Virus record (IMG/VR): IMGVR_UViG_2778261515_000019
Coordinates: 1 to 38,450 of that record
Direction: 5' to 3' (one strand)
Length of the DNA stretch: 38,450 nt
Origin: a virus
Lineage: Duplodnaviria; Heunggongvirae; Uroviricota; Caudoviricetes
Positions 6,109-29,000 of the stretch are shown one piece after another. The notes under the pieces were generated by a model. That model ran no database searches. It was not told the origin of the DNA and saw nothing but the letters and a program-made list of their open reading frames with translations. A program made the translations under genes and the position numbers. Position 1 is the first letter of the stretch. Each line of letters begins with the position of its first letter.

Positions 6109-6130
6109 GTTAGGTCAACCCTTTGGCGTC

Positions 6131-6151: not shown

Positions 6152-6229
6152 AATTTTCTGGTTTTTTTATGATTATTGCACTTGACAATTTTGAACCTAT
6201 TTGACCTAGATTTGTAAAGAGGATGTAAC

Positions 6230-6562: not shown

Positions 6563-6666
6563 TAAATTTCTATCATAAATAAAATTGTTCCGCGCGCCGT
6601 TGGCGTGTGGACAGTTAAAAACAGGAGGATTAAATCGCAAAACCGTTAATTAAGGGGAATCTTACT

Positions 6667-7518: not shown

Positions 7519-7526
7519 TAATTTTT

Positions 7527-7556
7527 GCCCCTGAATTTCAGGGGCTTTTTTGTTTT
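7527..7556 (+). terminator. Rho-independent terminator after the plus-strand early genes
   Basis: GCCCCTG-AATTT-CAGGGGC followed by TTTTTTGTTTT. Confidence 0.65.
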
Positions 7557-7563
7557 CTATAGG

Positions 7564-7596
7564 TATAAAAAAAGGCCAACCCCGAAGGATTGGCCT
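7564..7596 (-). terminator. Terminator for minus-strand gene 7603..7833
   Basis: AGGCCAA-CCCCGAAGGA-TTGGCCT with A-run on plus side (U-run in minus sense). Confidence 0.5.
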
Positions 7597-7602
7597 AGAG
7601 AA

Positions 7603-7833
7603 TCAAATTCCGGTAGCTTCTACCATTTCACCGTCAACCTGAACAAAGAATTTCAAATCAACTTTATGGAGTGATTTGTAGAATTGAGCAATTGAAATAC
7701 CGTGTTCACTCAATACTTGCTCTTTTTCAGCTTTACCTTTCGGTGCTTGATAGTACGCTTTTACAATCGCTGCCAGTTGTTCACGATCAAAACGGCAAGG
7801 ACGTCCGCGAGTAGCTTTAGTAGTCATAGTCAT
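7603..7833 (-). CDS. Small DNA-binding protein (AT-hook-like RGRP plus HTH)
   Basis: TRGRPCRF motif and HTH-like GISIAQFYKSLHK; RBS GGAGAAATGA context. Confidence 0.5.
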   Translation of the reverse strand: MTMTTKATRGRPCRFDREQLAAIVKAYYQAPKGKAEKEQVLSEHGISIAQFYKSLHKVDLKFFVQVDGEMVEATGI

Positions 7834-7861
7834 TTCTCCAAATTAAAGTGAATGTTCACCT

Positions 7862-8464
7862 TTATTTAGAGGATTTACATTTTATCGGAAAAAGTTCTCC
7901 ATCGTCAACGGTCATAAAGAACTCTGCCTTAATCCCGTACTTCTTCAACCGTGAATAGTATGTACCCCGACTTATATCAACCTTGCGAAGCACTTCAAAG
8001 AACCCTTTAGGATCGTTGTAATAGTGGCTATAACGCACGTTAGCGAGTTCAACGAATAGTTCCCTTGTATCACCATAGCCTTTCTTGAAAGCCTCGTTAC
8101 GATAGCGTGTAATTGCGTGATTCAATCTCTTCTGTTTCAACACTTCTCGGATCGGCTTCCACTGCAACCGATAGATAGGACCGTCATCCACTCGATAATA
8201 ACGCTTGATATCAAAATCAAACCAATCTCGGACTCTCTGGAACTCTGTATGTGATGTTCTATGCTTCTTAAAGAAGTTGTGAACGTCTGTATAACCATTA
8301 TCGCGGTAAAATTCTATTAAAATCTCTTTCGCTTCCTCACGACTAAATCCAGATGTTGTGTAGTCGGTTTTTAAATGCTTATGCTTAACTGGTAAACGAT
8401 ATTCATGATCGGTACAAGACAAGGCTAATTCTAATTCATCTCTTTGTTGCTGATTAATTAGCAT
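7862..8464 (-). CDS. DNA-binding protein with C-terminal resolvase/IS-type HTH
   Basis: 200 aa; C-terminal DISRGTYYSRLKKYGI HTH; divergent from terL. Confidence 0.5.
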   Translation of the reverse strand: MLINQQQRDELELALSCTDHEYRLPVKHKHLKTDYTTSGFSREEAKEILIEFYRDNGYTDVHNFFKKHRTSHTEFQRVRDWFDFDIKRYYRVDDGPIYRLQWKPIREVLKQKRLNHAITRYRNEAFKKGYGDTRELFVELANVRYSHYYNDPKGFFEVLRKVDISRGTYYSRLKKYGIKAEFFMTVDDGELFPIKCKSSK

Positions 8465-8549
8465 ACAACCCCCTTTAATTAATACCAGTATTTATCAAAA
8501 TATCAACAATTTAATAAATACCTTCATATTTCGTAATGAGGGTAATTAC

Positions 8550-10454
8550 ATGAAACTGATTTCAAATAAGGCAAAATTAAAAAAGATTCTCAGAAATATC
8601 TCTGCTGCAATTCGCCCACCTAAAGCCATGAAACCTAGCGAATGGGTAGAGGCTAATGTAGTTGCAACCGATGGTGTTAAAGCCGGATCGCTAATTAAAT
8701 TGCATCCCTTCCAACGTGGAATGATGGACGCGATCACCGAAGACCGTAGAAAAATTGTGTTTAAATGTTCGGCGCAGTTGGGTAAGACCATGATTCTTAA
8801 CGGAATTATCTTCCATCGGATCGCGAGTAACCCTACGAATATTGGGGTGTTGCAAAGTAACGTTAGGGAACTAAATTCTTGGATCGCTGGTAAGGTGAAG
8901 CCAGTATTAGAGGCAACCCCAGAATTAAAGGCGATGATCACCGACAAATCAGATCGCAATGCCGTTAACAACTCATCGATTATTCAGCTTCGTAACGGAT
9001 CATTCATGTATTTCATGTCGTTGAATAGTCCGTCACATCTTCGCGGTAAAACACTCCCTTTGATTATTCTTGATGAAGTTGATGCGGCTGATGAGTCAGA
9101 CGAAGGGAACCCGATCCAGCTAGCGGAACAACGCGCAACCACTTTCGGGGAAGATGCAAGGATCGTAATTGCTTCCACTCCAACCGCTCGTGATGGGGCG
9201 ATTAACCAACAATGGGAACTCTCGGATAAGAGAAAATATCATGTCGTTTGTCAGCATTGCGGACACCGACACGTAATGGAATGGAGTAACGTTTATTTCG
9301 ATTGGCATACGATTAACGGTAAGTCATTACCTAACCCAGATACAGCCGTTTACCGCTGTCCTGCATGTGAAACCGACTGGACCGAAGGGGATCGCCTACG
9401 TGCTGTTGCTAAGGGAGAATGGGTCGCCACCGAACCAAATGCGGAAGTAATCGGTTTTCATGCTAACCGCCTTATGTCTCCGTTTAGTTCTATCCGTGCG
9501 TGTGTGGTGGACTTTGCTGATAGCTACGCGAATATGTCCCTGGCAACGTTCTACAATACAGTCCTCGGTGAAACCTTCGATGATCTTAACGAAGACCGCA
9601 CAGCCGACGAATTAGAAACGCTGAAAACTGATATTAGACTAGACAATATTCCTGATGATGTACTGGCTCTGGTTGGTGGAGTTGACCAGCAAAAAGACCG
9701 TCTGGAATCTACCTTGCTGGGTATTTCTCGTAAAGGGCTATGCGTAGTTGATCACCGATCATTCTATGATGTGAACTGCGAACGCCACGAATCGCCAGCA
9801 TATGACCAGCTTTACAACTTCCTGAAAGCTAAATTCTATACCCGATCCGGTGAACGAATCCCGATGTTATCTGCTTTCGTGGACTCATCGAACGGACGAG
9901 CTACAAACGTGATCTATCGATTCTGTAGTCGGTGGCAAAATCTAACCGCCATTAAAGGCGCAAGCAATGTTGATGCACCAATCCTTCCGGTAAAAGACAC
10001 AAGAACGGGTGGTTTTACCCTTAAAATTCTGGGCGTAAACAACCTTAAAACGATGATCCGTGAAATGATTAACCGGAATTTGAGAGATGGCGATCCTCAC
10101 ACTGTCTTCCAGATTGGTGACGTTCCTGATGACTATTGCGAGCAATTGCTTTCTGAACAGTTGAAACGGCAGGGTAATACCACACGTTGGGTAAAAGTTG
10201 GTCAGCAACGAAACGAGGCTCTCGACTGCCTGGCTTATTCCTATGCTGCTTCTCGCCATGTACTCAATAAAATGTCATGGGAAAAACTCGAAGCCATCAA
10301 AGATAGTTTGAACCGTGAACCAGAAGAATCCGTAGAAGCTCCTAAATCGCAATCTGACGAGAAAATAGAAGAAACTAAGCCAATCACACGACCACAACGT
10401 CAAAACATCGCCAGACGCCCAAATAGAGGCCGTGGCTGGGTAACATCGTTCTAA
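8550..10454 (+). CDS. terL: Terminase large subunit, GpA (lambda A) family
   Basis: 634 aa; motifs LHPFQRGMMDAI, ILDEVD, NTVLGETF, IKGAS, RNEALDC align with lambda gpA as recalled; start of long plus-strand morphogenesis operon. Confidence 0.85.
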   Translation: MKLISNKAKLKKILRNISAAIRPPKAMKPSEWVEANVVATDGVKAGSLIKLHPFQRGMMDAITEDRRKIVFKCSAQLGKTMILNGIIFHRIASNPTNIGVLQSNVRELNSWIAGKVKPVLEATPELKAMITDKSDRNAVNNSSIIQLRNGSFMYFMSLNSPSHLRGKTLPLIILDEVDAADESDEGNPIQLAEQRATTFGEDARIVIASTPTARDGAINQQWELSDKRKYHVVCQHCGHRHVMEWSNVYFDWHTINGKSLPNPDTAVYRCPACETDWTEGDRLRAVAKGEWVATEPNAEVIGFHANRLMSPFSSIRACVVDFADSYANMSLATFYNTVLGETFDDLNEDRTADELETLKTDIRLDNIPDDVLALVGGVDQQKDRLESTLLGISRKGLCVVDHRSFYDVNCERHESPAYDQLYNFLKAKFYTRSGERIPMLSAFVDSSNGRATNVIYRFCSRWQNLTAIKGASNVDAPILPVKDTRTGGFTLKILGVNNLKTMIREMINRNLRDGDPHTVFQIGDVPDDYCEQLLSEQLKRQGNTTRWVKVGQQRNEALDCLAYSYAASRHVLNKMSWEKLEAIKDSLNREPEESVEAPKSQSDEKIEETKPITRPQRQNIARRPNRGRGWVTSF

Positions 10455-10526
10455 TAACTCGCCGTCCTTCGGGGCGGCTTACTCCTAAATATTGTTAATC
10501 CAATAACAATTAAATAAGGGGTGATT

Positions 10527-11021
10527 ATGAGTTTAGAACTAATTCCCTTAGTAATTCGTAAAGGCGAAAAAATCACGCTGGCGAATGAAGAGGGTGTAAC
10601 AATTCAGGTAGGAAATAGTAAAGGTATCATTTATCAGGTTGATGATACTCCGGCTAATCACGAGATTAAAACCTTAGATTTTGCCGAGGGTAAATATACC
10701 ATCGTAACCACTTTGGAAGAAGAACTGGTATCAATGCAGGAATTAACTGTATTGCCAGTATTCGCCAAACAATCCAAAAAAGAACATCTGCGGGAGACTA
10801 TCGCCAAAATCGAGCAAGTTATTTTCGCCCGTTTATCTGGGGACGAAGCCGCATTATCTCAAATGACCGTGAAAGGGAATACTTTCGCCTATGAGTCATT
10901 AGGTGTTCTCCAGCAATTAAAGACTGATTATGAACGTCAACTGTCTAAATTAATTCAAGCCGAACGACGTAAACAGGGAATTAGCCCGATTAAAAATATC
11001 AAATTACGTCTTACGCGATAA
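10527..11021 (+). CDS. Head-tail joining or head-completion protein (position-based; gpW position)
   Basis: Between terL and portal; RBS AAGGGGTG before ATG at 10527 (track ORF starts at upstream GTG 10521). Confidence 0.4.
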   Translation: MSLELIPLVIRKGEKITLANEEGVTIQVGNSKGIIYQVDDTPANHEIKTLDFAEGKYTIVTTLEEELVSMQELTVLPVFAKQSKKEHLRETIAKIEQVIFARLSGDEAALSQMTVKGNTFAYESLGVLQQLKTDYERQLSKLIQAERRKQGISPIKNIKLRLTR

Positions 11022-11031
11022 GGGGTAAATC

Positions 11032-12543
11032 ATGTTTAATCTTTTTCGACGCAATAAGGCGGTAGAAACTCCAGTTAAAACTAATCACCGCCAGCAACAA
11101 CAAAAAATCTTTATCGACAAACAAGTAGAAAAATTCCAGAAAGATTTGTCTAAGCGTTCTTTGGGCTTAGTTGGTGATCGCATTGATGGATCGCTTCAAC
11201 AAGATACTATCACAGGAACCTTCAATAAGGCTCTCAAATCGAACGGTAAACGCCTTTATGATCAGGGTCGTACTCTGGCTATAAACAATGCTGTAGGTAA
11301 GCGATACAAGCAGTATATCGTTGACCAAGTTGTTGGTACGGGGCTTGATCCGAAGCCGTCAATCGTTAAATCAAATGGCAAACTTGACACCGCACTGAAT
11401 AAGCAGATCGAGAATGCTTTCTGGAAGTGGGCGCAGAGTGCTAAACGCTTCTCTCGCAACGGTCGCTTTAACTTCCGTGAAATGCTGGCAATGGCAGAAT
11501 CTGAACGTGTTCAGGGTGGAGAATGCTTCATCGTTTTAACCAAAGAAAACAATGAGTTACAAGTTTCTATTCTGTCTGCTGATAGGTGCGACTGGTCGCT
11601 TAGTCGTGAAATAAGCAAAGACCGCGCTATCTATCAGGGGATCGAGTATGACGTAGAAACAATGCGCCCTGTTGCATACTGGTTTAGAAAAATCAATCTA
11701 CTGACTCAGACCTACACTGGCGAAAATTATCGCGTAGATGCTTCGCAAGTGTGTCATTACTATCAGCCCTTGTGCGCCGAGAGTTTGCGCGGCGTGACCG
11801 ACTTCCTACCAGTGATTAAGGATATTGCGCATCAAGAAGCGTTCCGCGAAGCTGTACTGGTCCAGAAACGAATTTCAGCTAGTAGCATGGCGTTCATCGA
11901 GCGTCCGAAAGATTCTGGTGACGATTTTGATACTGGTGAAGATGATGAACAATATCAAGCGCCGGAAGTTATTCACGATTTCGCGCCAGGTACTATTCAG
12001 GAATTACCGGAAGGGGCAACGATCAAGAGTATTCAATCCACGCAAAGCGGCGATGATTTCAATTCCTTTAACGCTGGTATGTTCACTAGCATAGCAATGG
12101 GTCTTGGCGTGTTCAATCAGGGCTTAACTGGTGATACTAGCCAAATCAACTACAGCGCCGCGCGTTTCGGTGAACTACTTCAACGTAACCGTGTTAAATC
12201 GCTACAAAACAAATTGATTGAAACAGTGGTATTGCCAATTTTTGAAGCATATCTACGCCATTATTCCGCGCGTGGTATTGTTCCGATTCGTATTACTGCA
12301 ATCCCGCATATTATCGAGAACACTACTATTATTCGTCCGCGTTTTGAGTCCGTCGATGTTATTAAAGATGTGAACGCTGATATTGCTTTAATTGATAAAG
12401 GACTTAAATCACGTACTGCTGTTATTTTGGAACGTGGCGACGATCCAGAAAAGGTATTTTCAGAGATCAGGTCTGAATCCAGTGCACTAAATATTATCGT
12501 TAATGGCGAGGGTGAAGAAAAAAATTCCCCAGCCGATCCCTAA
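11032..12543 (+). CDS. Portal protein (lambda gpB-like)
   Basis: 503 aa immediately after terL and connector gene; size and position typical of portal. Confidence 0.75.
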   Translation: MFNLFRRNKAVETPVKTNHRQQQQKIFIDKQVEKFQKDLSKRSLGLVGDRIDGSLQQDTITGTFNKALKSNGKRLYDQGRTLAINNAVGKRYKQYIVDQVVGTGLDPKPSIVKSNGKLDTALNKQIENAFWKWAQSAKRFSRNGRFNFREMLAMAESERVQGGECFIVLTKENNELQVSILSADRCDWSLSREISKDRAIYQGIEYDVETMRPVAYWFRKINLLTQTYTGENYRVDASQVCHYYQPLCAESLRGVTDFLPVIKDIAHQEAFREAVLVQKRISASSMAFIERPKDSGDDFDTGEDDEQYQAPEVIHDFAPGTIQELPEGATIKSIQSTQSGDDFNSFNAGMFTSIAMGLGVFNQGLTGDTSQINYSAARFGELLQRNRVKSLQNKLIETVVLPIFEAYLRHYSARGIVPIRITAIPHIIENTTIIRPRFESVDVIKDVNADIALIDKGLKSRTAVILERGDDPEKVFSEIRSESSALNIIVNGEGEEKNSPADP

Positions 12544-12588
12544 TAACCAACGGGGGCGCAATGCCCCCAATTAATTAAAGGTGATTAA

Positions 12589-14598
12589 ATGCTTAAATTT
12601 CGCCGCGATCTTAACGGTTACGGTGGAGTTATTAATGAAGGGCATAACGATCAATACGAATTTGAAATTGCTTTCTCAAGTACACAGCCTTATCAGCGCC
12701 AATTTTGGGATGAGCAAAATCAAGAAATGGTGGTATTAGATGAAATTCTGGTACATACACCGGAAGCGGTTGATCTGTCTCGTCTGAATAATAACGCTCC
12801 GTTGCTGTTCAATCATAATTTCGATAATCACATTGGTGTAGTCTGCGACGCTCGAATCGATGCGGATAACGTAGGCCGTGCTCTGGTTAAATTCTCTAAG
12901 CATGGCACTTTGGCTAATGATATTCGCAATAAAGTCATTGAAGGTACGATGGAAAAAATTTCTGTCGGTTATGACATTAAAGAATATCACATCGACTACA
13001 CCAAAGGGCAATTGATTGTTACTAAGTGGGCGCCTTTTGAAATTTCATTTGTGACGGTTCCCGCAGACGATTCGGTCGGTTTAAATCGCTCTCTAAATAC
13101 TATCACAGTTAATTTGGGGGCTAAACGAGATATGACTAAAGAACAAATCGAAGAAATCAAAGAAGAACAAGAATCAGCTCAGGTTGAAGAAACTCCGGTA
13201 GAAGAAAATAAAGAATCGGAAGTTGAAGAAACTCAAGAGCGCCAAGTTGAAGAGAATAAAGAAGATGAAAATCTCGAAGACGGAAAAGACGCTAAACATC
13301 CTGAAAGTGTTGATGATGATAGTTCAACTGTTCGGGAAACAGAAGAAGTAAAAGAAGAACGTGAAGCCGCTCCGGTTGAAGAAGAAAAAACCGAAGAAGT
13401 GGCTGAACGTTCCGAAGAAGACGAAGAAGAAATCCGAGCAATTGCGCGGGAACTAAATATTGATGACTCTGAATTAGCACGCGCATTGGCAATTAAAGAC
13501 ATGACGCCGGAAGCATTCCGCACTAAGGCACTAAATAATCTCGTCAATGCTCAACGTAATAACGAACAAATTAAGGACTCTAAAATGGAAAAAACTTTTG
13601 ACCTGAACAACGTAATTCGCTCTCTGGTAGATGGTGCTGCTCTGGGTGCTAACGAAGCTGAATATTCCGCTATGGCTGCTGGTGCTGCAATGCAGCGTGG
13701 TCGTGCTGCTCGCGGTGGCTCTGTATTCGTTCCGGCTGCTGCTCTGCGTGCTGCTTCCGAAGGTAACACCAAAGCTACTCTGACCGCTGTAACCGACGAA
13801 AAACTGCTGACTGAATCCTACATCGAAATGCTGCTTCCTGCTTCGTGTCTGGGTCGTCTGGGCGTGACCGTCCTGTCTGGTCTGAATGCTCCGATTGCTG
13901 TACCGAAAATGACTGCTTCCAGCGTTGATGCTTTCGGTTTCGTTGATGAAAACGGTGCTGCACCGGAAAGCAAAGCTGAATTTACAAACGTGAAAATGGC
14001 TCCGAAAACTTTTGCTGGTGGCAACCCGATCAGCCGTCAGTCTCTGAAAACTGTTCCGAATATTGCTACCCTGATCACTGATCACATTAACAAAGCTGTT
14101 CGTATCAAACTGGAACAACTGATTCTGTCTGACAAAGCTAACGAACGTGGTCCGAAAGGTCTGGTTAAGCAACTGGTAGACGCTAACCGCGTTACTAAGA
14201 AAACTGCTTTCTCTTACAAAGACTTCCTGAAAGAAATTGCAGCACTGACCGACGCTGGCGTTCCTGCTCAGGCGATCAAGTTCGCTATGAGTGGTGCAAC
14301 TGCTGCTGAACTGGAATCTACCCCGAAATCCGATCGTGGTGACGCTCAAGGCTTCATTATGGAAAACGGCAAACTGGCTGGTTACGATGTAGTTACTTCT
14401 GGCGTTATTCCGGCAGACCACATCGTTCTGGGTGACTTCTCCGGTATCATGATCGGTGAATGGGGTGGTCTGGAACTGGATATGGACGACACCACTTACC
14501 GCGCACAGTCTGCTATCGTTCCGCGTATCTGGGTAGACCTGGACTTCACCGTAGTTCAGCCGGAAGCTCTGAAAGTTCTGAAAATGGGCGAAGAGTGA
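12589..14598 (+). CDS. Prohead protease - acidic linker - scaffold-like coiled coil - HK97-fold major capsid protein, fused in one 669-aa ORF
   Basis: N-terminus has U35-type prohead protease motifs PLLFNHNFDNHIGVV and ISVGY; residues about 180-300 Glu-rich; C-terminal about 300 aa Ala/Gly-rich with capsid-like LSDKANERGPKGLV; optimal codons. Confidence 0.7.
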   Translation: MLKFRRDLNGYGGVINEGHNDQYEFEIAFSSTQPYQRQFWDEQNQEMVVLDEILVHTPEAVDLSRLNNNAPLLFNHNFDNHIGVVCDARIDADNVGRALVKFSKHGTLANDIRNKVIEGTMEKISVGYDIKEYHIDYTKGQLIVTKWAPFEISFVTVPADDSVGLNRSLNTITVNLGAKRDMTKEQIEEIKEEQESAQVEETPVEENKESEVEETQERQVEENKEDENLEDGKDAKHPESVDDDSSTVRETEEVKEEREAAPVEEEKTEEVAERSEEDEEEIRAIARELNIDDSELARALAIKDMTPEAFRTKALNNLVNAQRNNEQIKDSKMEKTFDLNNVIRSLVDGAALGANEAEYSAMAAGAAMQRGRAARGGSVFVPAAALRAASEGNTKATLTAVTDEKLLTESYIEMLLPASCLGRLGVTVLSGLNAPIAVPKMTASSVDAFGFVDENGAAPESKAEFTNVKMAPKTFAGGNPISRQSLKTVPNIATLITDHINKAVRIKLEQLILSDKANERGPKGLVKQLVDANRVTKKTAFSYKDFLKEIAALTDAGVPAQAIKFAMSGATAAELESTPKSDRGDAQGFIMENGKLAGYDVVTSGVIPADHIVLGDFSGIMIGEWGGLELDMDDTTYRAQSAIVPRIWVDLDFTVVQPEALKVLKMGEE

Positions 14599-14685
14599 AA
14601 TAACGAAGAATTGCCGGAAGAAATTCCGGTAGTTACGGCGAAAGCCACAGCTAAAAAGGTGGGACGTCCACCGAAAGCAAAATAA
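14599..14685 (+). other. In-frame 28-codon extension after the capsid TGA stop (candidate readthrough peptide NNEELPEEIPVVTAKATAKKVGRPPKAK)
   Basis: Frame open from TGA (14596-98) to TAA (14683-85); 24-nt block GTTACGGCGAAAGCCACAGCTAAA identical to the block after the tail-tube gene. Confidence 0.3.
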
Positions 14686-14690
14686 TAATT

Positions 14691-14716
14691 AGCCCTGCCT
14701 AACGGTGGGGCTTTTT
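14691..14716 (+). terminator. Rho-independent terminator (copy 1 of duplicated module)
   Basis: AGCCCTGCC-TAAC-GGTGGGGCT followed by TTTTTTG. Confidence 0.7.
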
Positions 14717-14747
14717 TGTATGTAAATACTCCATAAAGGGGGTAACT

Positions 14748-15038
14748 ATGTTCAAATTATCAGAATCACAATTAAATCGAATGTTTAAAAGTGCTCCTGT
14801 ATTTTCGGTGGAAGGTGGTAAATCAATTCGTGCTTATCATGAAATTACTACTACCGACGAACAAGGGGTAATGACAGAGACAGAATTTCTATTTTGTCGT
14901 GAGGGAGACTTAAAGCAAGGTGATATTGTCATTGTAGAAAATCAGCGTTTCAAAGTTCAATACGTTAAGCGCAATGGTGATAATACTTCTGATTGCTTTA
15001 TTACTCTGGCAGGGGGTACACATGCTCGCTACCGTTAA
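14748..15038 (+). CDS. Head-tail connector/adaptor-position protein
   Basis: RBS AAGGGGGT; 96 aa; position after capsid gene. Confidence 0.45.
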   Translation: MFKLSESQLNRMFKSAPVFSVEGGKSIRAYHEITTTDEQGVMTETEFLFCREGDLKQGDIVIVENQRFKVQYVKRNGDNTSDCFITLAGGTHARYR

Positions 15039-15444
15039 TAATATGCCGAGACTGAAAATCAAACGCGCCTTGCAAGATATTATCGAACAAGATTTAGGTC
15101 TGGCTTTAAACGTAGAACAAACTCAGCAAGGCTTTAGTGATGACGTGGTTTGTTGGATCACTGGAATGAATGAGACTTACACGCGTGTTCGTGGTGGTAA
15201 TGCAATGCAAGCTGAATGCGTTATCGAAATGCAATTATATTCTCAGATTCATGAAACCAAAATTCATGAGGGTATTTGCCAGATAATCCAGATTCAGCCG
15301 GATAACCCACGTTTTAAAGATTTGGGCTTCGCTATTTCAGATATCACTCCAGTAGCTTCTAATACCGATTATGACGATGATTCTAGTGATGGTGGTATCG
15401 TTGGGACACTTAGCCTTAAATTTTCTTATGTAGCGCGTTTTTAA
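15022..15444 (+). CDS. Head closure / tail completion-position protein (start at ATG 15022 overlapping upstream gene by 17 nt)
   Basis: RBS AGGGGGT 5 nt before ATG 15022; track ORF starts further upstream at 14974. Confidence 0.4.
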   Translation: MLATVNNMPRLKIKRALQDIIEQDLGLALNVEQTQQGFSDDVVCWITGMNETYTRVRGGNAMQAECVIEMQLYSQIHETKIHEGICQIIQIQPDNPRFKDLGFAISDITPVASNTDYDDDSSDGGIVGTLSLKFSYVARF

Positions 15445-15453
15445 GGGGTAATA

Positions 15454-16287
15454 ATGAATATTACACAAGATAACTTAGACATTTTCACGGGGTCGCATGT
15501 TGAAGTGTCGATCTCTAACCAGCTAGACAATCAGGTCGACTTTTTCGATCCTAGCTTTAGTTCTATGGAGAACATCGCAGCATTCCCTACGCTAACAGAA
15601 TCCACAGAGATTGAAACTCTGGAAGAGTACGATCAGGACGCTACGGGGAAACTTGCTGGTTATCGTAGACTGGAACCGACAACACTCACATTAAACCGTG
15701 TTCTTGACGATGAACATCAAGCAATGTTGATGAAAGCGGTAGAGGATAAAACACCTTTACGCTTCCGTATGTTCTATGTTGTGAACTCTGGCTATAGTGC
15801 TGCTAACACTGGTTACTATGTCATCTATGACGCTTATGTCACTAGTCACAAAACCCGTGGCGCAGATAACAAAGCTGTAACACTGGAATTTAAACTTGAA
15901 CCAGATGGCGGGATTCTAGCAAGGGGTATAGCGACCGAAGGCCGGATCTTACGTCAGGGTGATTTTGGTTTGGGTGCTGGTGTAAATCCATTCACGGGTC
16001 CGATTGATAGCGAGGCATTAGCAGGAAACCGTTTCGTAACTTACAAGGGAACCGCTAGCGGTAATCCATATTCAACCGACACAGCATTAATTCACCTTCA
16101 AGCTAATGAGCATGGCGCATGGCAATTAACCTGTAATACTTCTGGCGCACCGCGTTTACGTGTCCGAAATATTCAGGAAAACGGTCGTTCTGAATGGATC
16201 AAGGTATATTCCACCAATGAGAAACCGACACCTAGCGAAATTGGCGCAGTGGCTAAGACTGACCGGATCGATTTCGGTGAGTATTAA
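15454..16287 (+). CDS. Tail-tube-fold structural protein (tail terminator or second tube-like protein)
   Basis: Segment TLTLNRVLDDEHQAMLMKAVEDKTPLRFRMFYV parallels DLTLTVNYIPGDSVHEKLIKAAEDGTRVQIKIEYYV of the 20036..20509 protein. Confidence 0.45.
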   Translation: MNITQDNLDIFTGSHVEVSISNQLDNQVDFFDPSFSSMENIAAFPTLTESTEIETLEEYDQDATGKLAGYRRLEPTTLTLNRVLDDEHQAMLMKAVEDKTPLRFRMFYVVNSGYSAANTGYYVIYDAYVTSHKTRGADNKAVTLEFKLEPDGGILARGIATEGRILRQGDFGLGAGVNPFTGPIDSEALAGNRFVTYKGTASGNPYSTDTALIHLQANEHGAWQLTCNTSGAPRLRVRNIQENGRSEWIKVYSTNEKPTPSEIGAVAKTDRIDFGEY

Positions 16288-16364
16288 GATTGCTTACCTA
16301 AATAAAACATGAACGTTGGGAGGTTAACGCCTCCCTTATTCCTGTTTTATAGTGAGGTGATTCG

Positions 16365-19300
16365 ATGCAGTCGATCCAATTTAAACGCACACAAACGGCT
16401 GGTAAAAAACCAACGCCGGAACAATTATCACAGGGTGAAATCGCCTTACAGTTGGCGGATCATGTGATTTACACCAAAGACAAAAATAATAACGTAGTCC
16501 AAATTAGTGTTTCTCCAGAAAAACACGCTGAACTGAATACGAAAGTAGACAATAACAAAACTAGCACTGACCGTGTTATTGCTTCCAACAAACAAGAAGC
16601 CGCTAATAATCTGGCTAGTGCTAAAGCTGAACTGAATCAGACTATTACCACGAAAGATACAGCGACCAATAAGCGCATTGATGCTACTAACACCACGGTT
16701 AGTAACTTAACCCAGACAGTCACGGCAAATAAAACCGATGCTGATACTAAGATCAATAACCTTACGGGGACAGTTGCATCTAACAAATCAGCTATAGAAA
16801 CTACTGTAGCAAATAATAAACGAGATGCGGACAATAAAATCGCAGCTTTAACCACGACGGTTAATGACAATAACACCGCGATTAACAACAAAGTTAATAC
16901 CACTAACACCAACGTTAGCAACTTAACTAAAACTGTTACTGCAAATAAAACCGATGCAGATAACAAAATTTCTAGCTTAACTAGCACGGTTGCAGCTAAC
17001 AAAACAGCGATTGAAAAGGTCGTTTCCGACAACAAGAAAGATGCTGATACGAAGATCACCAACTTAACCAACACTGTTAATAGCAACCACACCGCCATTA
17101 ACAACAAGGTTGACCAGAATAAATCAGCTACTGATTCAGCGATTGCAGCCGCTAACCGTCGAATTGATGGTATTGAAGGTAGCAACGATGCTCTTTACAT
17201 CAAGAAGAATACCAACACTAAGCACGGCGGGTATCTGTTAAGCAAGACAGCTAACTATCTGGAAGACCAGACATCACGAGATCTTAACTACTTTGGTGCT
17301 TTCCGTACCAATGGTCTTGATGGACTCATGGATCTAACTCTTAACGTTCCTCACTCTGCCGGTAAAGCTCACGGTCGCGGATTTACTTTCCGTTATGCGT
17401 CTGGTGGATCTCGTGTTGAAACCTATGGTTTTGATAGAGATGGACAGAAGAACTTTAGCTATAAGATGTATCACGAAGGTGATAAGCCGACTCCTGGCGA
17501 GATTGGTGCATACACCAAAGCCGAAGTTGATAAGATGTTTGTTAAAAACGTCGCTATGTCTGTTCCCAATTCTAGCGAAAACGTATCTGCATATTTCAAA
17601 TTGGCAACCGCAACAATTCCACAAAACGGGCGTAGTGTGTTTTTCCGTATTCATGGTGGTGATGGTTACAACGTTGCGGCATATGACCAAGTTGATGTAG
17701 TAGAAATTCTTCTCCGTAGTGGTAACGATAGACCTAAAGGACTTAACGTAGTTGCATATCGTCGAAATACCGTCAAAGATTTTGATGTATTTGCCGTCAA
17801 TACATCCGGTGATAACTATGACATTTATGTGAAATATCAGCGTTACACTGATAACGTTATTGTAGAATATGGGAAATCTGTTAATGTAAGTCTGACGGTT
17901 TATGATACGCCGGAAGCCACGTTAATTAAACCTTCTGTTGGTGTTATTGGCGGTCGCGCGGTAACTCTATTCAATACAGAAAACAAACGAGGTGTGTTGA
18001 GTTTTGACGATAACACACAAAATAGTTATGATATTGTTCACTTGAGTAATGATAGGGGTACTGGACGAAAATATATTCGTAAATTCCGTAGTAACTATAA
18101 TGAAATGATCTGGCACGAGACGGTTCAAGGCGCCAGCTATCGTCTGGCTACTGGTGCAACTGATGCTCAGGAGATTCTAACCGTTGAATCTGTTAGCTCA
18201 ATTGCTGGAACTCATAAAGGTAATATTACTTCTGGCCGTATGCTGTTAAATGGCGGTAGTAATGTTATTACCTTGCGGCGTCCTGCTGGTCAATCCAACC
18301 ATATTGCGTTTCAAGATAATCGGACTGGAGATATTACCCGTCAAGGGTGGATCGGTTATGCCAATGCTGATACTAACGTTTTTGAATGGTATAGTGATGT
18401 AGGTGGCAGTTCTATTCGTCAACATATCGACGGACAGATCGAACTTGCAACCGGTAACACAAAACGCGTTTATACTAACGCTCAATTCATCTCAATGAAT
18501 AGCGACGCCTACCGTATGCTCTATGGTAATTATGGTGCATTCTGGCGTAATGACGGCGTTAAAGTTTATCTTCTTTCTACTGCCGAAAATGATAAATTGG
18601 GCGGATGGAATACTTATCGTCCATTCATTTATGATTTAACTTCCGGTAACGTTCAATTAGGCGGTGATGGTAACGAAGATGCATTAACGTTAGAACGTGC
18701 TTCTCGTGCCGCTCGCTTTAGTAATGACGTTTACATTAAGAAAGGGCATTTGACTTTCGACGCTGGGCGATTAAATTCCCGCGATTACTTCCGGTTTAAC
18801 CATTGGGGTGATAGCAATAACGGTCGCGATAACATCCTACAGATTGAAGACAGTAAGGGCGCACATTTTACCACTGAACGTACTTTATCAACTGGTGCGA
18901 TTAAAACTAAATTCTTCGGTGATTTGGAATCTGCTGGTCAAATTAAATGGGGTAAAGGGACCGCCGCATCTACGTTTACTCTACGTGTATGGGGTAACGA
19001 TAGTCGTAAACAAATATTTGAATGTGGCGATGAAAGTGGGTGGCATTGGTATACCCAACGACCTGGCGGTCCAGGTACTACAGCAATAGAATTTGCTATC
19101 AACGGTACTGTTAAGCCTCAAGCAATTCACAGTGGCGGTAATATCACTATCAACGGTGCTGATATTGAGTTTCGTCGCAGTGGCAATAAGCATTTGTGGT
19201 TTAGAGATCCGAACGGTTTAGAGTTAGGCTTGATGTACTGCGATGATGCTGGTGCTATTCGCTTCCGTGGTCAGAAACAAGCCCAGGCGTGGAAATTTGC

Positions 19301-19979
19301 AGATAAAATGATCCAGTTGGAATCTGGCACTGTATCCGGTGGCGGTAATGGCCTGATTCGTGGTGAAGTTGCTGGCGGTAGTTGGGCTAGCTGGCGTGAC
19401 CGTGCTGCTGGCCTTATGGTTGGGTGTCCTCAATCCACCAACTCGGCACATAACGTATGGAAAGCGACGCATTGGGGTAAATATCACATTGCAGCAATGG
19501 CTGTACATGTTCCTGATGGTACTATTACCAATGCTTTAGCTCGCCTAAACGTTCATGACGCCAACTTTGACTTTAACGCTGCGGGTGATTTTAGCGCAAG
19601 TCGTAATGGTAGCTTTAACGATGTTTACATTCGTTCGGACCGTCGTCTGAAAGTTAATCTGGAAGAATTAAAAGATGATGCTTTAGAGAAAGTAAACTCC
19701 CTGAAAGTCTACTCATACGATAAAGTTAAGTCTCTTAAAGATCGTAGTGTGATTAAACGCGAAGTCGGTATTATTGCTCAGGATCTGGAAGAAGTATTGC
19801 CGGAAGCAGTAGGTATTCAATCCACCGAAGATCCAGAAAATCCAGAAGCAATTAAGACTATTTCTAACTCTGCTGTTAATGCCTTGATTATTAAAGCTAT
19901 TCAGGAAATGGACGCCAAATATCAAGCTAAGATTGAAGCATTGACTAAAGAGATTGCCGAACTCAAAGCAACTAAATAA
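16365..19979 (+). CDS. Long tail fiber with N-terminal Thr/Asn-rich tandem repeats and C-terminal intramolecular-chaperone-like domain
   Basis: 1204 aa; two ~72-aa repeats NxSNLTxTVTANKTDADxKI...; C-terminal SDRRLKVNLEEL...VYSYD...GIIAQDLEEVLPEAV resembles autoproteolytic chaperone domains of fiber/endosialidase proteins. Confidence 0.8.
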   Translation: MQSIQFKRTQTAGKKPTPEQLSQGEIALQLADHVIYTKDKNNNVVQISVSPEKHAELNTKVDNNKTSTDRVIASNKQEAANNLASAKAELNQTITTKDTATNKRIDATNTTVSNLTQTVTANKTDADTKINNLTGTVASNKSAIETTVANNKRDADNKIAALTTTVNDNNTAINNKVNTTNTNVSNLTKTVTANKTDADNKISSLTSTVAANKTAIEKVVSDNKKDADTKITNLTNTVNSNHTAINNKVDQNKSATDSAIAAANRRIDGIEGSNDALYIKKNTNTKHGGYLLSKTANYLEDQTSRDLNYFGAFRTNGLDGLMDLTLNVPHSAGKAHGRGFTFRYASGGSRVETYGFDRDGQKNFSYKMYHEGDKPTPGEIGAYTKAEVDKMFVKNVAMSVPNSSENVSAYFKLATATIPQNGRSVFFRIHGGDGYNVAAYDQVDVVEILLRSGNDRPKGLNVVAYRRNTVKDFDVFAVNTSGDNYDIYVKYQRYTDNVIVEYGKSVNVSLTVYDTPEATLIKPSVGVIGGRAVTLFNTENKRGVLSFDDNTQNSYDIVHLSNDRGTGRKYIRKFRSNYNEMIWHETVQGASYRLATGATDAQEILTVESVSSIAGTHKGNITSGRMLLNGGSNVITLRRPAGQSNHIAFQDNRTGDITRQGWIGYANADTNVFEWYSDVGGSSIRQHIDGQIELATGNTKRVYTNAQFISMNSDAYRMLYGNYGAFWRNDGVKVYLLSTAENDKLGGWNTYRPFIYDLTSGNVQLGGDGNEDALTLERASRAARFSNDVYIKKGHLTFDAGRLNSRDYFRFNHWGDSNNGRDNILQIEDSKGAHFTTERTLSTGAIKTKFFGDLESAGQIKWGKGTAASTFTLRVWGNDSRKQIFECGDESGWHWYTQRPGGPGTTAIEFAINGTVKPQAIHSGGNITINGADIEFRRSGNKHLWFRDPNGLELGLMYCDDAGAIRFRGQKQAQAWKFADKMIQLESGTVSGGGNGLIRGEVAGGSWASWRDRAAGLMVGCPQSTNSAHNVWKATHWGKYHIAAMAVHVPDGTITNALARLNVHDANFDFNAAGDFSASRNGSFNDVYIRSDRRLKVNLEELKDDALEKVNSLKVYSYDKVKSLKDRSVIKREVGIIAQDLEEVLPEAVGIQSTEDPENPEAIKTISNSAVNALIIKAIQEMDAKYQAKIEALTKEIAELKATK

Positions 19980-20035
19980 TAAAAGTCGGGGGACTAGTTC
20001 CCCCGTTATAACAAATTTAATTAAGGGGTAATTAT

Positions 20036-20509
20036 ATGTCTCAACAATTCAAAGATATTTTTACTGGTGGTTTGGTAAGTCTGTTCTATCACGCTGATAC
20101 CACTAACACCGCTCTCAACCATGAGGGGTATGAAGAAATTAAAGAGTGTGCTGGTTTTCCTGAAACTGGTATCGAGCGCGGTACTGTAGAAGTTAAATCC
20201 TTCTCTTCTCAGTATAACCGTAAACTGGTAGGGAAGCTGAACGTTCCTGATCTGACTCTTACGGTGAATTACATCCCCGGGGATAGTGTCCACGAAAAAT
20301 TGATCAAAGCTGCCGAAGACGGCACAAGAGTACAAATCAAAATAGAGTATTATGTTGACGCCGGAAAACAGACTGGTATTCGCACCGCTTTCAACGGCTT
20401 CATTTCTAAAGTTGCTATGAACGGTGGCGATGAAGAAGTGGTAACTAAAGAGTTTACCTTTGCAGTGGACGGCAAACCGCTGAAACAGGAAATCTTCACT
20501 GCCGGATGA
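20036..20509 (+). CDS. Major tail tube protein
   Basis: 157 aa; strong RBS AAGGGGT; followed by terminator module as for capsid gene; tube-like motif DLTLTVNY ... FTFAVDG. Confidence 0.6.
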   Translation: MSQQFKDIFTGGLVSLFYHADTTNTALNHEGYEEIKECAGFPETGIERGTVEVKSFSSQYNRKLVGKLNVPDLTLTVNYIPGDSVHEKLIKAAEDGTRVQIKIEYYVDAGKQTGIRTAFNGFISKVAMNGGDEEVVTKEFTFAVDGKPLKQEIFTAG

Positions 20510-20629
20510 ACTAACGAAGAACTTCCCGAACCGGAACCACAGCCGGAACATGAAGCGGTGGTGATTCCAGAAGTAGAAGAAGTTACGGCGAAAGCCACAG
20601 CTAAACGAAGCCGCAAGGCTAAAGATTAA
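20510..20629 (+). other. In-frame 39-codon extension after the tail-tube TGA stop (TNEELPEPEPQPEHEAVVIPEVEEVTAKATAKRSRKAKD)
   Basis: Frame open from TGA (20507-09) to TAA (20627-29); shares AACGAAGAA(T/C)T.CC.GAA start and the identical 24-nt block with the capsid extension; indels relative to that copy are multiples of 3. Confidence 0.3.
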
Positions 20630-20634
20630 TTATA

Positions 20635-20663
20635 AGCCCTGCCTTAATGGTGGGGCTTTTTTA
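20635..20663 (+). terminator. Rho-independent terminator (copy 2 of duplicated module)
   Basis: AGCCCTGCCTT-AAT-GGTGGGGCT followed by TTTTTTATT. Confidence 0.7.
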
Positions 20664-20678
20664 TTGGAGCAATAAAAA

Positions 20679-21185
20679 ATGGCGAATGTCGTTAATAAGC
20701 CCGGCTGGGTCGGGTCATCTGCTGTTTCTGTAACTAGTCAACGATGGATGACCGCAGCAATGAACGCATTAAAGGTTAGTCGCCCAGCTAACATGAGTGC
20801 GATGTGTGGTCGTGGTATGGATACGGTTGTAGCTACTGCTGCGTGGTCTACTTCATTGGGTAATAACTGGGGTGTAACTGCTTCAAACTATCCAGTAACT
20901 GACATGCGCGGTAAAGGATCTATGGAGAACCCCGAAAACGTTGGCGTAGGGCGTCTGATTGGCGTTATCGTTGGTCAATTCAATGGTGGTACTCCTACTA
21001 TGGCTGTATATCTCCAGAACGGTAGAGCGGGGAATATAACCGTTAATTTGGGTGGTGCTGCTGTCACTGTTCCTTATAACAGTATGCAAAGTGGTTTTCA
21101 TTACTACTGGTTAAGCAATCCTCCGGCTGCTTTCCTTACCAACATTAAGAAGACTGGCACTAAGCAGACTTTGAAAATCTCTTAA
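20679..21185 (+). CDS. Tail-associated protein of unknown role
   Basis: 168 aa; between tail tube and chaperone genes. Confidence 0.45.
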   Translation: MANVVNKPGWVGSSAVSVTSQRWMTAAMNALKVSRPANMSAMCGRGMDTVVATAAWSTSLGNNWGVTASNYPVTDMRGKGSMENPENVGVGRLIGVIVGQFNGGTPTMAVYLQNGRAGNITVNLGGAAVTVPYNSMQSGFHYYWLSNPPAAFLTNIKKTGTKQTLKIS

Positions 21186-25659: not shown

Positions 25660-26079
25660 ATGCTAAAAACTAGGCTTATCACCGATTACATCAATTCTTT
25701 AATAGGTCAGGAGTTCGTTCAGGGTGAGAATGATTGCAATCTAATTGCATGTAAGATCATCGATATTCTCGCTGGTACTGACCTATATAATTCTCTTTAT
25801 AAAAAATATTCAACTAAAGAAGAAGGCTTGAAAATCTGCAAAGAATTAAGCGGGTATTCAAATATCCTTCAACCAATTAAGAAACATTTCAAATTAGTCA
25901 CTGATGATTTACAGGACGGCGACTTACTGGTCACAGCCCACAAATTAGGAAACCGTAATTATTATTCCGTAGTTCCTCATTATTCCGGTTATGGCCTCGT
26001 TGAAGAAGATGGTATCTGGATGACCATTCCTGTTTCAGACATTGACTATGAACAAGTTTATAGATTCGGGGGTGAATAA
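25660..26079 (+). CDS. Tail assembly protein K-like (NlpC/P60-type segment)
   Basis: RBS GGAGG; GENDCNLIACKI candidate catalytic Cys; gpK position. Confidence 0.45.
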   Translation: MLKTRLITDYINSLIGQEFVQGENDCNLIACKIIDILAGTDLYNSLYKKYSTKEEGLKICKELSGYSNILQPIKKHFKLVTDDLQDGDLLVTAHKLGNRNYYSVVPHYSGYGLVEEDGIWMTIPVSDIDYEQVYRFGGE

Positions 26080-29000
26080 TGGGATTTGAAGTATTGGTAG
26101 GCGCGGTTATTGCTGGTGCGTCTGCTGGGATGGCTGCTGCTGCAACATTTTCTGTTATGACCGCAGTCGCTATCGGTATGGCTGCTGGTGCAATGACCTT
26201 GATCGCTTCCACTGTAGGCGCACCGAAAACACCGAAAGTACAAAGCCCAGATAATGCGGTGACACTAGGAACATCAAACGATCCTAAGACAGTATTACCC
26301 GTTATTTTTGGTACTACCCGCACGGGTGCAATCTGCGTTTACAAAGCAATTTCCAAGCAAGAAAACAATAAGTTAGTGCAAATCTTCGCTATTGCCGAGG
26401 GTGAAATCGACCATTACAAAGCACTGTTTATCGATAACAAAAATGTTCTTGTTGGTAAGAACATGACGATCCGTGATGGTGTACTGGACAAAGGCAACAT
26501 TAAAGAAGAATATCGGAAAGTCTTAGAAGTTGAGTTCCGCACGGGTAAGAATCCTAACACCGCTTTGTCACTGGCAAAACGTCATTTAGGATCAGACTGG
26601 AACGACAACTACAAAGGCAATGGTATTGCAACCATGTGTATTGTGTTACGTCGTGATGACAAATCTCTTGCTGCTGGTGTTGATATTCTCCAGCCAAATA
26701 GCCAGGTAGCAGTAGACGTTTGCGGCCTTAAAATCCGTAACCTTGAAACCAATGCTATTGAGGCTAGCACTAACGGCGTGGATCAGATTTTCCACTACCT
26801 AACAAATGAAAAATATGGCTTATCCGTACCAATTGAAAACATTAACGTTGATTCATTCCTGAAAGTACGTAAACAAGTACGCCAGATGGACCTACATTCA
26901 AACGGTGCATGTGATCCGAACGCCAGCTTTAAAGAGAACTTGACTAGCCTTATGCAGACTTTCGGCGGGGTGATGTTCGAATCCTTTGGACGTATTACCC
27001 TGAAACTGGATGCTCCTGATATTGTTAAGCATACCTTCAATGAAGACAATATTATGATGGGGAAAGTATCACTGAAAACAGGTGGCACTAACGGTTATTT
27101 CAATACCATTAACGCGATGTATCAGGAACCATCAATCGACTATTCCGAGCAAATGCTACGTTATCCGGCTGATGCTGAAAACGATGCTACTATTCGTCAA
27201 GATGGTCGAATTATCGCTAAAGATATTGAATATCGTTTTGTTAAGTCTAAAGCCCAGATTGATAAACTTGCGAGTATTGAGCGAAATAAATCTCGTATCA
27301 CTCAGGTTATCAGCTTTATGACTACTGACGCATTCACTGCCGAAGTTTGGGACGTTATCAGCGTAACCTATGATGAATTGAAGCTGAATAATTCCTTATG
27401 GCGTATTACTGCAATTGATCGCTCGATTGATTCTGGTATTGCTGGGATGATGACTATCACCGCTACAGAATATAATTCTCAGGTTTATACTGACCTGAAC
27501 TATGCGGCTAACCCAGATAACCGACCAAGTGGTTTACCGGATTCAATGACAGTACAGAAACCGACTAATTTCAGAATTAAGGCAACTGGCGAGACGATTT
27601 ACGGTAAAAACGTTACTTTGACATGGGACGCACCGGAAGATTTTAACCGCTACGGTTTCCAGATTGATTATCGTGTGAGTGGATCACCTAACTGGATTAA
27701 GCTGGGACAGACTTCACAGCAAATTTTCAATATCAACGCACTGGCTAAAGATCGCTCTTATGATTACCGAGTTTGTGCTTTCGGTATCATCGCTCGATCC
27801 GATTGGGTAGAACTGATTAACCAGAATCCGACTGTTACCTATGAATTGCCGACTCCGGTTATTCGAATCAAAAATCAGGGTAGCACGCCAGGAACTTTCG
27901 AAGGTAATGATCTGATTATCGAATGGGAAAACCAGCAACAATTAGATGTTGAGATCAACGGTGAAACTAACAAGTTTAGTGACCTGTTTGAAGCATACAT
28001 TATCAAGGTGACTAACAAGGCTGGTAAGTCTATTCAGTACCGTACCCGCGATCCTGAATCATGGACTTATACGCTTGATATGAACCAGTTTAACGGCCTT
28101 TCGCGTCAACTGACGGTAGAAGTATCGGCTAAGGGCTATAACAACTCAGAGAGCGCCCCAGCGCGTTTAGTGGCTATCAACCCACAACATAAGCCAATGA
28201 AAGGTTTTAGTGCGCGTGGTGGCTTTAATACTGCGTTTGTTAGCTGGGTAGATGACGTAGAACATGACTATGCAGGGTCAATCATCCAGTATGCAACCGA
28301 TAACACTTTCTCCGATGCAAGGGCGGTAAGCACGAATAGTGTTAGCCATACTTCCTTTGATTTGGCAGACGGTGATTATTATATCCGTGGTGCTCACTAC
28401 GATATTTTCGGTATGGATGATGCTGTTTGGTCTGAACCGTATTTCATGCAAATGAAATCTACCATTAGCTGGGACGATCAGGACAAAGAAGCACTGGAAG
28501 ACCTGATTGGTTTACAAGACCGCTTAGATGAAACTATCGCGGATGCTATTGCTCAAGCTGGCGCTAATGCCGATGCTAAAATTGATGCAATGCATAAGCA
28601 AATCACTACCGAAACAGGGCAGACGGTCCAAGCCTCAGCCAATACCTTAAAGAGTCTGATTGCTACCAGCGAGCAAGCTAGCTCCACTAAGATTGATCAG
28701 GTTAAAGCTGAACTGAAAGGCGATATTAAATCCGAAGTCAGCGCATCTGCTACTACCCTGAAACAAGCAATTGCTACCAGTGAGGCAGCAAGCGCAAGCA
28801 AGATTGATCAAGTTCGGGTAGAAATGGATGGCAAGATTGCTGGCGTGAATCAGGAAGCAGATGTAAAAATCGATGCTTTGAAAGGAACCATTAACAGCAA
28901 ATATAATCTGGCAGTTAATGCAGATGGTCGCGTGGCTGGTATTCACATGAGCGCAACCAACGATCCGGCGCAACCGACGAGAATCATCTTTAATGCTGAT

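Follow-up and report, generated by a model that had tools for sequence, protein, structure and literature searches.

The DNA analysed here (henceforth referred to as the window) comprises positions 1 to 38,450 of IMG/VR virus record IMGVR_UViG_2778261515_000019, a stretch of 38,450 nucleotides, and our subject is a gene within it that encodes a long tail fibre, together with its upstream neighbour, which encodes the protein p277, and a nearby gene for a short adhesin, p168. Judged by its sequence, the window is an almost whole Escherichia coli prophage with a lambda-type, non-contractile tail; it aligns end to end with the prophage of E. coli strain VTB96775v, an element of ~35 kb that interrupts ycdX and encodes a large serine recombinase. 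Matches to the segment 8500..31900 were detected in 62 of 5426 complete E. coli genomes, with at least 80% of that query covered in 19. We consider it likely that the fibre is the shaft of a three-part side fibre on this temperate, lambda-type-tailed phage, with a tube ring built on p277 as its anchor and the gp38-like p168 as its tip. The coordinates of all features are collected in Table 1.

A gp37-type tail fibre with an S74 chaperone

The original prediction, made from the letters of the window, was that the gene encodes a long tail fibre, and this was borne out by a match to PHROG 1699 'long tail fiber distal subunit' (expectation value (E) 4.8e-155) and by homology to gene product 37 (gp37) of T4-like phages. 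A megablast search placed window 17232..19910 at ~86% DNA identity over 2.7 kb to gene 37 of RB49, Phi1, JSE and other Krischvirus T4-like myophages, and fibre residues 290-1201 were 83.8% identical to Phi1 gp37 residues 71-978 over 912 residues. The DNA identity sets in sharply at 17232 and is mosaic, at 61-99% per 150 nucleotides with two stretches at 99%, and the synonymous divergence between the fibre and Phi1 is only 0.12 in the tip region. Because of this mosaic identity and low divergence, exchange of the fibre with the Krischvirus gene pool is, as far as sequence comparison goes, both recent and repeated, and residues 290-1201 represent by the same comparison a recently exchanged copy of an RB49/Phi1-type gp37. 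The N-terminus has its own kinship with gp37: it shows 39% identity to Phi1 gp37 (fibre residues 1-51 against gp37 residues 4-54, E 5e-10) and 32% identity to T4 gp37 residues 4-65 (E 1.4e-12). This joint domain, for which AlphaFold2 (AF2) predicted a small beta domain, is the most conserved part of the fibre among relatives and has the lowest ratio of non-synonymous to synonymous substitution rates (dN/dS, 0-0.06). Across all segments of the fibre dN/dS against relatives was 0.06-0.43, and in the comparison with Phi1 it was highest (0.68) in the tip region.

The claim that the C-terminal ~110 amino acids resemble the intramolecular chaperone of endosialidases and T5-type fibres was likewise upheld by a match to PF13884 over residues 1091-1149 (E 1.6e-15; 57.6 bits against a cut-off of 22), and the domain measures 114 residues. 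It starts with S1091-DRRL-K1096 (SDRRLK), an instance of the motif S-D-x-R-x-K; of the 46 related fibres that were screened, 37 have this motif. The stretch matched by PF13884 can also be aligned with the solved gp37 fragment of phage S16 (6f45_A, E 1.2e-3), and Phi1 gp37 carries the same S74 domain. We take S1091 and K1096, on the model of the endosialidases, to be the candidate catalytic dyad, and we predict self-cleavage between R1090 and S1091, which would leave a mature fibre of 1090 residues. The likeness to T5 holds for the chaperone domain, which both fibres have in common, and stops there: no similarity to T5 pb1 was found outside it, which rules out a pb1-type fibre, and the rest of the protein is an RB49/Phi1-type gp37. 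Taken by itself, the gene is ordinary, a new member of the well-known kind of gp37-type fibre with an S74 chaperone.

Comparison with the close relative L001 showed a single segment of the gene that does not align, 19060..19602, which is the tip just before the chaperone. The L001 chaperone is nearly identical to that of Phi1. The sequences indicate independent, repeated exchanges of the tip with RB49-like phages.

The 72-residue repeats lie within a predicted helical rod

Between its two gp37-homologous parts the fibre contains 238 residues without counterpart in Phi1 gp37, and it is here that two diverged, Thr/Asn-rich repeats of ~72 residues had been proposed to form a generic shaft. The repeats are real: scored by self-alignment of the protein, the two copies gave a local alignment score of 255, against 69 +/- 9.7 (maximum 100) in 300 shuffles, the best ungapped self-offset was 72, and the copies are identical at 50 of 72 residues (69%) and at 70% of nucleotides. 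The end coordinate originally given for them, 17130, lies ~22 nucleotides too far. Tandem Repeats Finder, run on 16000..20200, returned only two trivial 9-nucleotide repeats and missed the 72-residue units because the DNA copies are merely 70% alike, and a blastp self-comparison of the fibre gave the identity match only.

The generic shaft was not borne out, since both repeats sit within one continuous predicted alpha-helix. AF2 modelled a single helix over fibre residues 51-270 with predicted local distance difference test (pLDDT) scores of 91-98, and the hydrophobic periodicity of the rod at 3.6 residues had a power of 139, compared with 2-10 at other periods; this helical character rules out a beta-structured repeat shaft. 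The rod contains no proline and three glycines in 225 residues, one 72-residue unit corresponds to 20 helical turns, and on the structural prediction the rod is presumably a trimeric coiled coil of ~33 nm if straight. We then compared the rod across 47 fibre sequences, among them Phi1 gp37 and that of the window; 34 contained the motifs that mark the two ends of the rod. In these the rod measured 225 (10 fibres), 220 (13), 197 (10) or 165 residues (1) and belonged to three unrelated sequence types, a pattern by which rod length is polymorphic through segment replacement. The suggestion that the repeats could expand or contract by recombination remains plausible in principle, but simple copy-number change was not seen: none of the 34 measurable rods had one or three copies of the 72-residue unit.

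p277 resembles a tail-tube protein with a gp36-type end

The fibre gene had been described as lying upstream of the tail-tube gene and away from the tip genes, between connector and tube genes. It does lie upstream of the tube gene (20036..20509, encoding p157) and far from the tip gene (26079..29855), but its upstream neighbour is no connector gene: p277 is a paralogue of the tube protein. The two proteins are 28% identical over 162 residues (E 6e-14) and both match PHROG 158 major tail protein. AF2 modelled the N-terminal domain of p277 with pLDDT 75-93, and the top Foldseek matches of this model were the tail-tube proteins of 80alpha, lambda (gpV) and YDC107 (~1e-7).

The C-terminal part of p277 has a different kinship. 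Residues 180-277 align end to end with residues 396-496 of Phi1 gp36 (31% identity, E 9e-5). We built a hidden Markov model (HMM) from the last 45 residues of 20 members of the p277 family and searched it against the 1363 open reading frames (ORFs) of the window and ten loci; this C-terminal HMM matched Phi1 gp36 at 5e-25 and T4 gp36 at 4e-5. Members of the family invariably end in (I/V)DFG(E/Y)(Y/F), and T4 gp36 ends in ...QDFGYY. Pfam held no family for p277 or for its C-terminal domain alone, and a word-indexed homologue search with the Phi1 gp36 C-terminus gave one irrelevant match.

In T4 the C-terminus of gp36 pairs with the N-terminus of gp37. The likeness to that joint extends to both partners: p277 ends in ...KPTP..IGA....IDFGEY where Phi1 gp36 has ...KPTPADVGAVPLNAVIDFGTF, and the fibre starts like gp37. 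By sequence, therefore, the window has the T-even gp36-gp37 joint in both its halves, one on the tube paralogue and the other on the fibre. The setting differs, in that the gp36-like end is here fused to a tail-tube domain, whereas T4 gp36 is part of a fibre hung from gp35 and gp34 on the baseplate.

Anchor, fibre and tube genes keep their order among relatives

Among E. coli prophages of the window's family, p277 and the first ~65 codons of the fibre gene are conserved while the remainder of the fibre is swapped. A scan of IMG/VR returned 48 loci. Wherever a locus reaches far enough, the gene immediately after that of the p277 homologue (down to 37% identity) has a gp37-type N-terminus; next comes, in some loci, a gp38-like gene, and then the tube gene. 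The order anchor-fibre-tube was thus kept in every sufficiently complete related locus examined, and more than 40 loci contain full-length, intact fibre ORFs. In distant relatives the anchor has 446-485 residues and ends in ...IDLGTF, and the tube protein bears a C-terminal extension with weak immunoglobulin (Ig)-like matches.

A search of the p277 C-terminal domain against 1.84 billion cluster representatives returned 135 proteins. In 19 top-ranked ones, of 278-1209 residues, the knob domain lies at about residue 160, where it would be expected just after a tube-like domain. Eleven sequences with such a knob position were retrieved and ten were read; all ten start with a tube-like domain, and eight carry the C-terminal motif D-x-G-x-(F/E). 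Of the other two, P0089 ends differently and P0112 runs on into a complete fibre without this joint motif. Scans of species-representative genomes found no p277 relatives, and tblastn with p277 found a single deposited phage record, Escherichia phage DCP80 (L011, GenBank PQ671644), in which a 699-residue tube-fibre fusion ending in VIDFGLE is followed by a 745-residue protein with a gp37-type start.

The DCP80 record, probably a chimeric assembly, is labelled as a 141-kb T4-like Gaprivervirus, but its positions 1..18560 hold a siphophage structural module of the type found in the window prophage (terminase, portal, capsid, tube-fibre fusion, fibre, tube and tape measure). In another relative (L010, E. 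coli 06-00048, 6911..11046) a gene for a 975-residue fibre is followed directly by an IS3-family transposase, and the downstream tail genes are missing.

A gp38-type adhesin is encoded downstream of the fibre gene

The original prediction overlooked a gene for a gp38-type adhesin at 20679..21185. Its product, p168, matched Pfam Gp38_N (PF21721) over residues 4-42 (E 6.5e-14) and, from end to end, PHROG 1121 'tail fiber adhesin' (E 2e-31). Residues 7-48 are 67% identical to RB49 gp38. Stx phages, P13374 among them, encode a 'tail fibre adhesin' to which p168 as a whole shows 44% identity, and its identity to the short gp38 of PEi20 and of Kosakonia phage 305 is 31-33%. A phmmer search of p168 against solved structures gave no match. 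The gene is present in every complete locus with a window-type fibre and is under purifying selection (dN/dS 0.11-0.19). In three relatives (L003, L009 and L050) a full-length T2/S16-type gp38, with Gp38_N and the receptor-binding domain PF05268, is encoded directly 3' of a fibre with the same chaperone; the PF05268 matches in L003 and L050 were at 1e-69 and 4e-49.

RB49 gp37, like most T-even gp37s, has a self-cleaving C-terminal chaperone, and once this is removed one gp38 monomer caps the fibre tip (PMC9569957). The gene that separates the fibre gene from that of p168 is no obstacle to such a pairing, because RB49 gene 38 is likewise encoded far from gene 37. The sequence evidence makes it most likely that p168 caps the window fibre, and the presence of this adhesin gene implies that receptor binding is probably not the task of the end of the fibre itself.

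Prophage setting and other features of the window

The lambda-like structural module of the prophage encodes a gpA-type terminase, a portal, an FII-like 96-residue protein, a 669-residue protein that matches both major-head and head-protease families, the tube protein, G/T chaperones, a distal tail protein, a DUF2163 hub, an 809-residue tape measure and the J-like tip protein. No part of the gene set for packaging, head, tail and lysis is missing. Among the scanned ORFs of the structural module there was no match to gp34, gp35, gp36 or a sheath, and from the absence of a sheath gene there we take the tail to be non-contractile. Megablast of window 1..17300 against the phage collection gave no match, so the prophage backbone, as judged by this comparison, is not represented among deposited phages, and a literature search for ycdX-integrated prophages of this kind returned nothing relevant.

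The p157 gene lies directly upstream of the G/T chaperone and tape-measure genes, and its product reached or came close to the cut-offs of Phage_TTP_11 and Phage_TTP_12, two lambda-like tube families in Pfam. Its position before the G/T genes, these tube-family scores and the strong terminator that follows make p157 probably the major tail-tube protein. The dN/dS values of p277, p157 and p168 span 0.08-0.23. The terminators after the capsid and tube genes read AGCCCTGCC...GGTGGGGCT, followed by a T run. The p157 stop codon is followed by an in-frame extension, and its frame and basic tail are kept in five related prophages, one of them at 80% nucleotide identity with in-frame indels; in relatives with the other tube type the tube gene stops at TAA and has no extension. 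From its sequence, the extension may reflect UGA read-through of the major tube protein.

The right part of the window contains two foreign elements. The UvsW-type helicase gene, which is not present in the related prophage L001, is by DNA comparison a second import from the RB49-like virulent phage group. The elements at ~33600..35330 have counterparts at 99.3% identity in Streptococcus gallolyticus, S. lutetiensis and S. pasteurianus, which identifies this region, at the sequence level, as a Gram-positive resistance transposon within an E. coli prophage.

Table 1. Coordinates of the fibre gene, its proposed partners and other features of the window
Feature	Position in window	Strand	Residues	Remarks
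Fibre gene	16365..19979	+	1204	gp37-like; ATG start, no internal stop
N-terminal joint domain (MQSIQFKRTQTAGKKPTPEQLSQGEIALQLADHVIYTKD...)	16365..16520	+	1-52	Homology to gp37 N-terminus
Alpha-helical rod (predicted)	16521..17195	+	53-277	AF2 helix; hydrophobic periodicity
72-residue repeat, copy 1	16677..16892	+	105-176	
72-residue repeat, copy 2	16893..17108	+	177-248	
gp37-homologous shaft and tip	17232..19634	+	290-1090	Homology to Krischvirus gp37
Gp34_trimer-type domain	18336..18632	+	658-756	PF21446, E 2.3e-23; matches solved T4 gp34 structures
Peptidase_S74 intramolecular chaperone	19635..19976	+	1091-1204 (114)	PF13884
p277, proposed fibre anchor	15454..16287	+	277	Immediate upstream neighbour of fibre gene; ends ...KPTPSEIGAVAKTDRIDFGEY-COOH
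p277 tail-tube domain	15454..15942	+	~1-163	Paralogy with p157
p277 fibre 'knob' domain		+	~164-277	gp36-type C-terminus
p168, short gp38-type adhesin	20679..21185	+	168	Two genes downstream of fibre gene
p168 attachment domain	20688..20822	+	~4-48	Gp38_N
p157, major tail-tube protein candidate	20036..20509	+		PHROG 158 and 41
Tube extension	20510..20626 (TGA to stop 20507..20629)	+		39 in-frame sense codons after p157 TGA: TNEELPEPEPQPEHEAVVIPEVEEVTAKATAKRSRKAKD, then stop
J-like tip gene	26079..29855		1258	Lambda gpJ C-terminal receptor-binding domain
Terminator-like hairpin, weak	16318..16335	+		Between anchor gene and fibre gene
GC-rich hairpin	19987..20005	.		Just 3' of fibre stop codon
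Strong terminators	14691..14712 and 20634..20658			After capsid gene and after tube gene; hairpins nearly identical
UvsW-type helicase gene	31895..33394	-		DNA ~84% identical to uvsW of RB49-like T4-type phages
Resistance transposon	~33600..35330; ORFs 33683..34246 and 34201..35244	-		IS1595-family transposase and lincosamide/aminoglycoside-type nucleotidyltransferase

Discussion

We propose that p277 would form one hexameric ring in or on the tail tube, its six C-terminal domains making up two trimeric sockets, and that the N-terminus of the fibre would dock on such a socket. The predicted alpha-helical rod of 225 residues would be inserted as a spacer between the gp37 N-terminus and the gp37 shaft parts. 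To judge from membership of the S74 family, the three fibre chains would fold with the aid of the chaperone, which would cut itself off before S1091, and p168 would then cap the exposed tip, as in RB49, T2 and S16, and contact the receptor. Receptor binding would still fall mainly to the lambda-J-like central tip (26079..29855), and the fibre would make adsorption faster or broader in the manner of the Ur-lambda Stf. Docking on a tube paralogue would probably also explain why the fibre gene lies next to the tube genes. Two positions for the ring are suggested by analogy: a location at the head end by the p277 gene, which sits where lambda has U, just before V, and a location at the tip end by the precedent of T5 p140. 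By rule of thumb, the rod would measure ~33 nm, the rod with its gp37-like shaft ~90 nm and the tail ~120 nm (from the 809-residue tape measure), and these lengths do not settle the position of the ring. In a wider reading, which we hold to be nearly as likely as not, some siphophages may mount side fibres directly on a ring of a tube paralogue fused to a fibre stub with a terminal gp36 'socket', into which gp37-type fibres of virulent T4-like phages would plug wholesale with their gp38 tips.

Several observations weigh against a three-part fibre of this kind. At its proximal end, AF2 gave the C-terminal domain of p277 pLDDT values below 50 and hence no model for fold comparison, and both the N-terminal motif FKR...G.P...GE.A.N..D and the knob domain are widespread in tail fibres, so homology to the gp36 and gp37 ends is no proof of mutual binding. 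The fibre might then dock elsewhere, on the distal tail protein, the J-like tip or a neck protein, and p277 would be a decorated tube subunit, its knob decorating the surface or acting as a weak adhesin, comparable to the Ig-like domain of lambda gpV, with the adjacency of the two genes due to chance or co-regulation. The occurrence of such knobs in many fibre proteins and the unmodelled p277 C-terminal domain favour this possibility, as do the C-terminal decoration domains that tube proteins often bear and the Ig-like end of the tube protein in distant relatives. Yet the extreme C-terminus of p277 matches gp36 specifically, at 5e-25 with the family HMM, and not just any knob; the p277-fibre gene pair is strictly syntenic down to 37% identity; and p277 and the fibre N-terminus are co-conserved while the distal parts are swapped. 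In addition, Pfam and PHROG scans of the neighbouring genes, which included no dedicated p132 search, revealed neither a lambda Stf-N nor a T5 p132-type collar protein. Overall, we regard docking elsewhere as quite unlikely.

At the distal end, no match of p168 to the GP38 receptor-binding domain PF05268 was found at E <= 0.01, and the link between fibre and adhesin is not obligatory, given two exceptions: L004 has the chaperone and no gp38-like gene, and L008 (E. coli 14EC029, 1216..4491) has kept p168 alongside an unrelated fibre tip without an S74 chaperone. Since the presence of p168 co-varies with tube type, its linkage to the fibre may in part reflect lineage rather than function. These points are consistent with a fibre whose own distal end (residues ~900-1090) binds the receptor after loss of the chaperone, as in T5 pb1, leaving p168 as a leftover, a folding helper or a binder of another tail part, and the swapping of the tip between close relatives and its high dN/dS against Phi1 fit the same picture. 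Against it, the fibre tip (84%) and the p168 attachment domain (67%) both derive from an RB49-type pair that is reported to act as fibre and gp38 cap (PMC9569957), and p168 is under purifying selection, so that receptor binding by the fibre's own end seems to us rather unlikely. A further alternative is that the prophage is defective and the fibre gene a decaying relic without present function. The element is indeed small (~35 kb), the few left-arm ORFs that were scanned included no recognisable replication module, the window copy has taken up a foreign helicase gene and a resistance transposon, and some relatives have insertion sequences in or beside the fibre gene. We nevertheless reject a relic as most improbable, because dN/dS stays far under 1 in each fibre segment as well as in p277, p157 and p168, and the intact fibre ORFs in more than 40 loci and the complete packaging, head, tail and lysis gene set speak against it as well.

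The proposed three-part fibre resembles several known systems, each in part. With the gp37-gp38 pair of RB49 and Phi1 it shares the shaft and tip (84% identical at the protein level), the Gp34_trimer-type domain, the S74 chaperone starting SD-x-RLK and a gp38 partner that has the same attachment domain and whose gene lies apart from gene 37 (PMC9569957, PMC3157838). It differs in the non-contractile lambda-type tail, with gp34, gp35 and gp36 unmatched among the scanned structural ORFs, in the 225-residue helical rod inserted after the N-terminal domain and in the shortness (168 residues) and different C-terminal domain of its gp38-like protein. The S16/T2-type system (PDB 6F45) has the same chaperone family and Gp38_N domain, and the complete pair occurs in the relatives L003 and L050; p168 lacks the PF05268 receptor-binding domain of S16 and T2 gp38. 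In the Ur-lambda Stf, too, a temperate siphophage has a side fibre with sequence in common with T-even gp37 (PMC12617516, PMC3157838); its proximal rod is a coiled coil, and its role is accessory to that of a central fibre of the J type (PMC12617516). Stf differs from the window fibre in its attachment, made at the gpV/gpM junction by collar domains at the N-terminus of Stf itself (12 copies, four fibres), in the position of its gene after J and in its use of a separate Tfa chaperone where the window fibre has an S74 domain.

T5 offers the nearest precedent for the anchoring: its tube paralogue p140 forms a dedicated ring where the fibres anchor, and a separate p132 collar holds them (PMC10038345). 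The T5 fibre is a dispensable siphophage side fibre with a C-terminal S74 chaperone, in a phage with a duplicated tube protein (PMC10038345), and the window fibre would be of the same kind. The difference is that p140 is bare and is combined with a separate, Ig-like, dodecameric p132 collar, whereas p277 itself bears the putative socket. It is a classic finding that lambda and T4 have exchanged fibre genes (PMC3157838). In the literature searched, the movement of a whole distal half-fibre system onto a siphophage appears to be undescribed, as does a tube paralogue with a gp36-type end.

Tail fibres set host range, and here an almost complete T-even distal half-fibre, consisting of gp37, its chaperone and a gp38-type tip, is found inside a temperate lambda-type phage. 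Because stretches of its DNA are 99% identical to those of virulent RB49-like phages, it appears that in present-day E. coli such host-range modules pass between phages that differ widely in lifestyle. If the proposed anchoring is true, the lambda Stf collar and the T5 p132/p140 collar would be joined by a third way to fix side fibres on a non-contractile tail, and the pairing of a gp36-type end with a gp37-type start would provide a compact adaptor for grafting T-even fibres onto siphophage or tailocin scaffolds. Such anchoring would also give genes a lasting path between virulent myophages and temperate siphophages.

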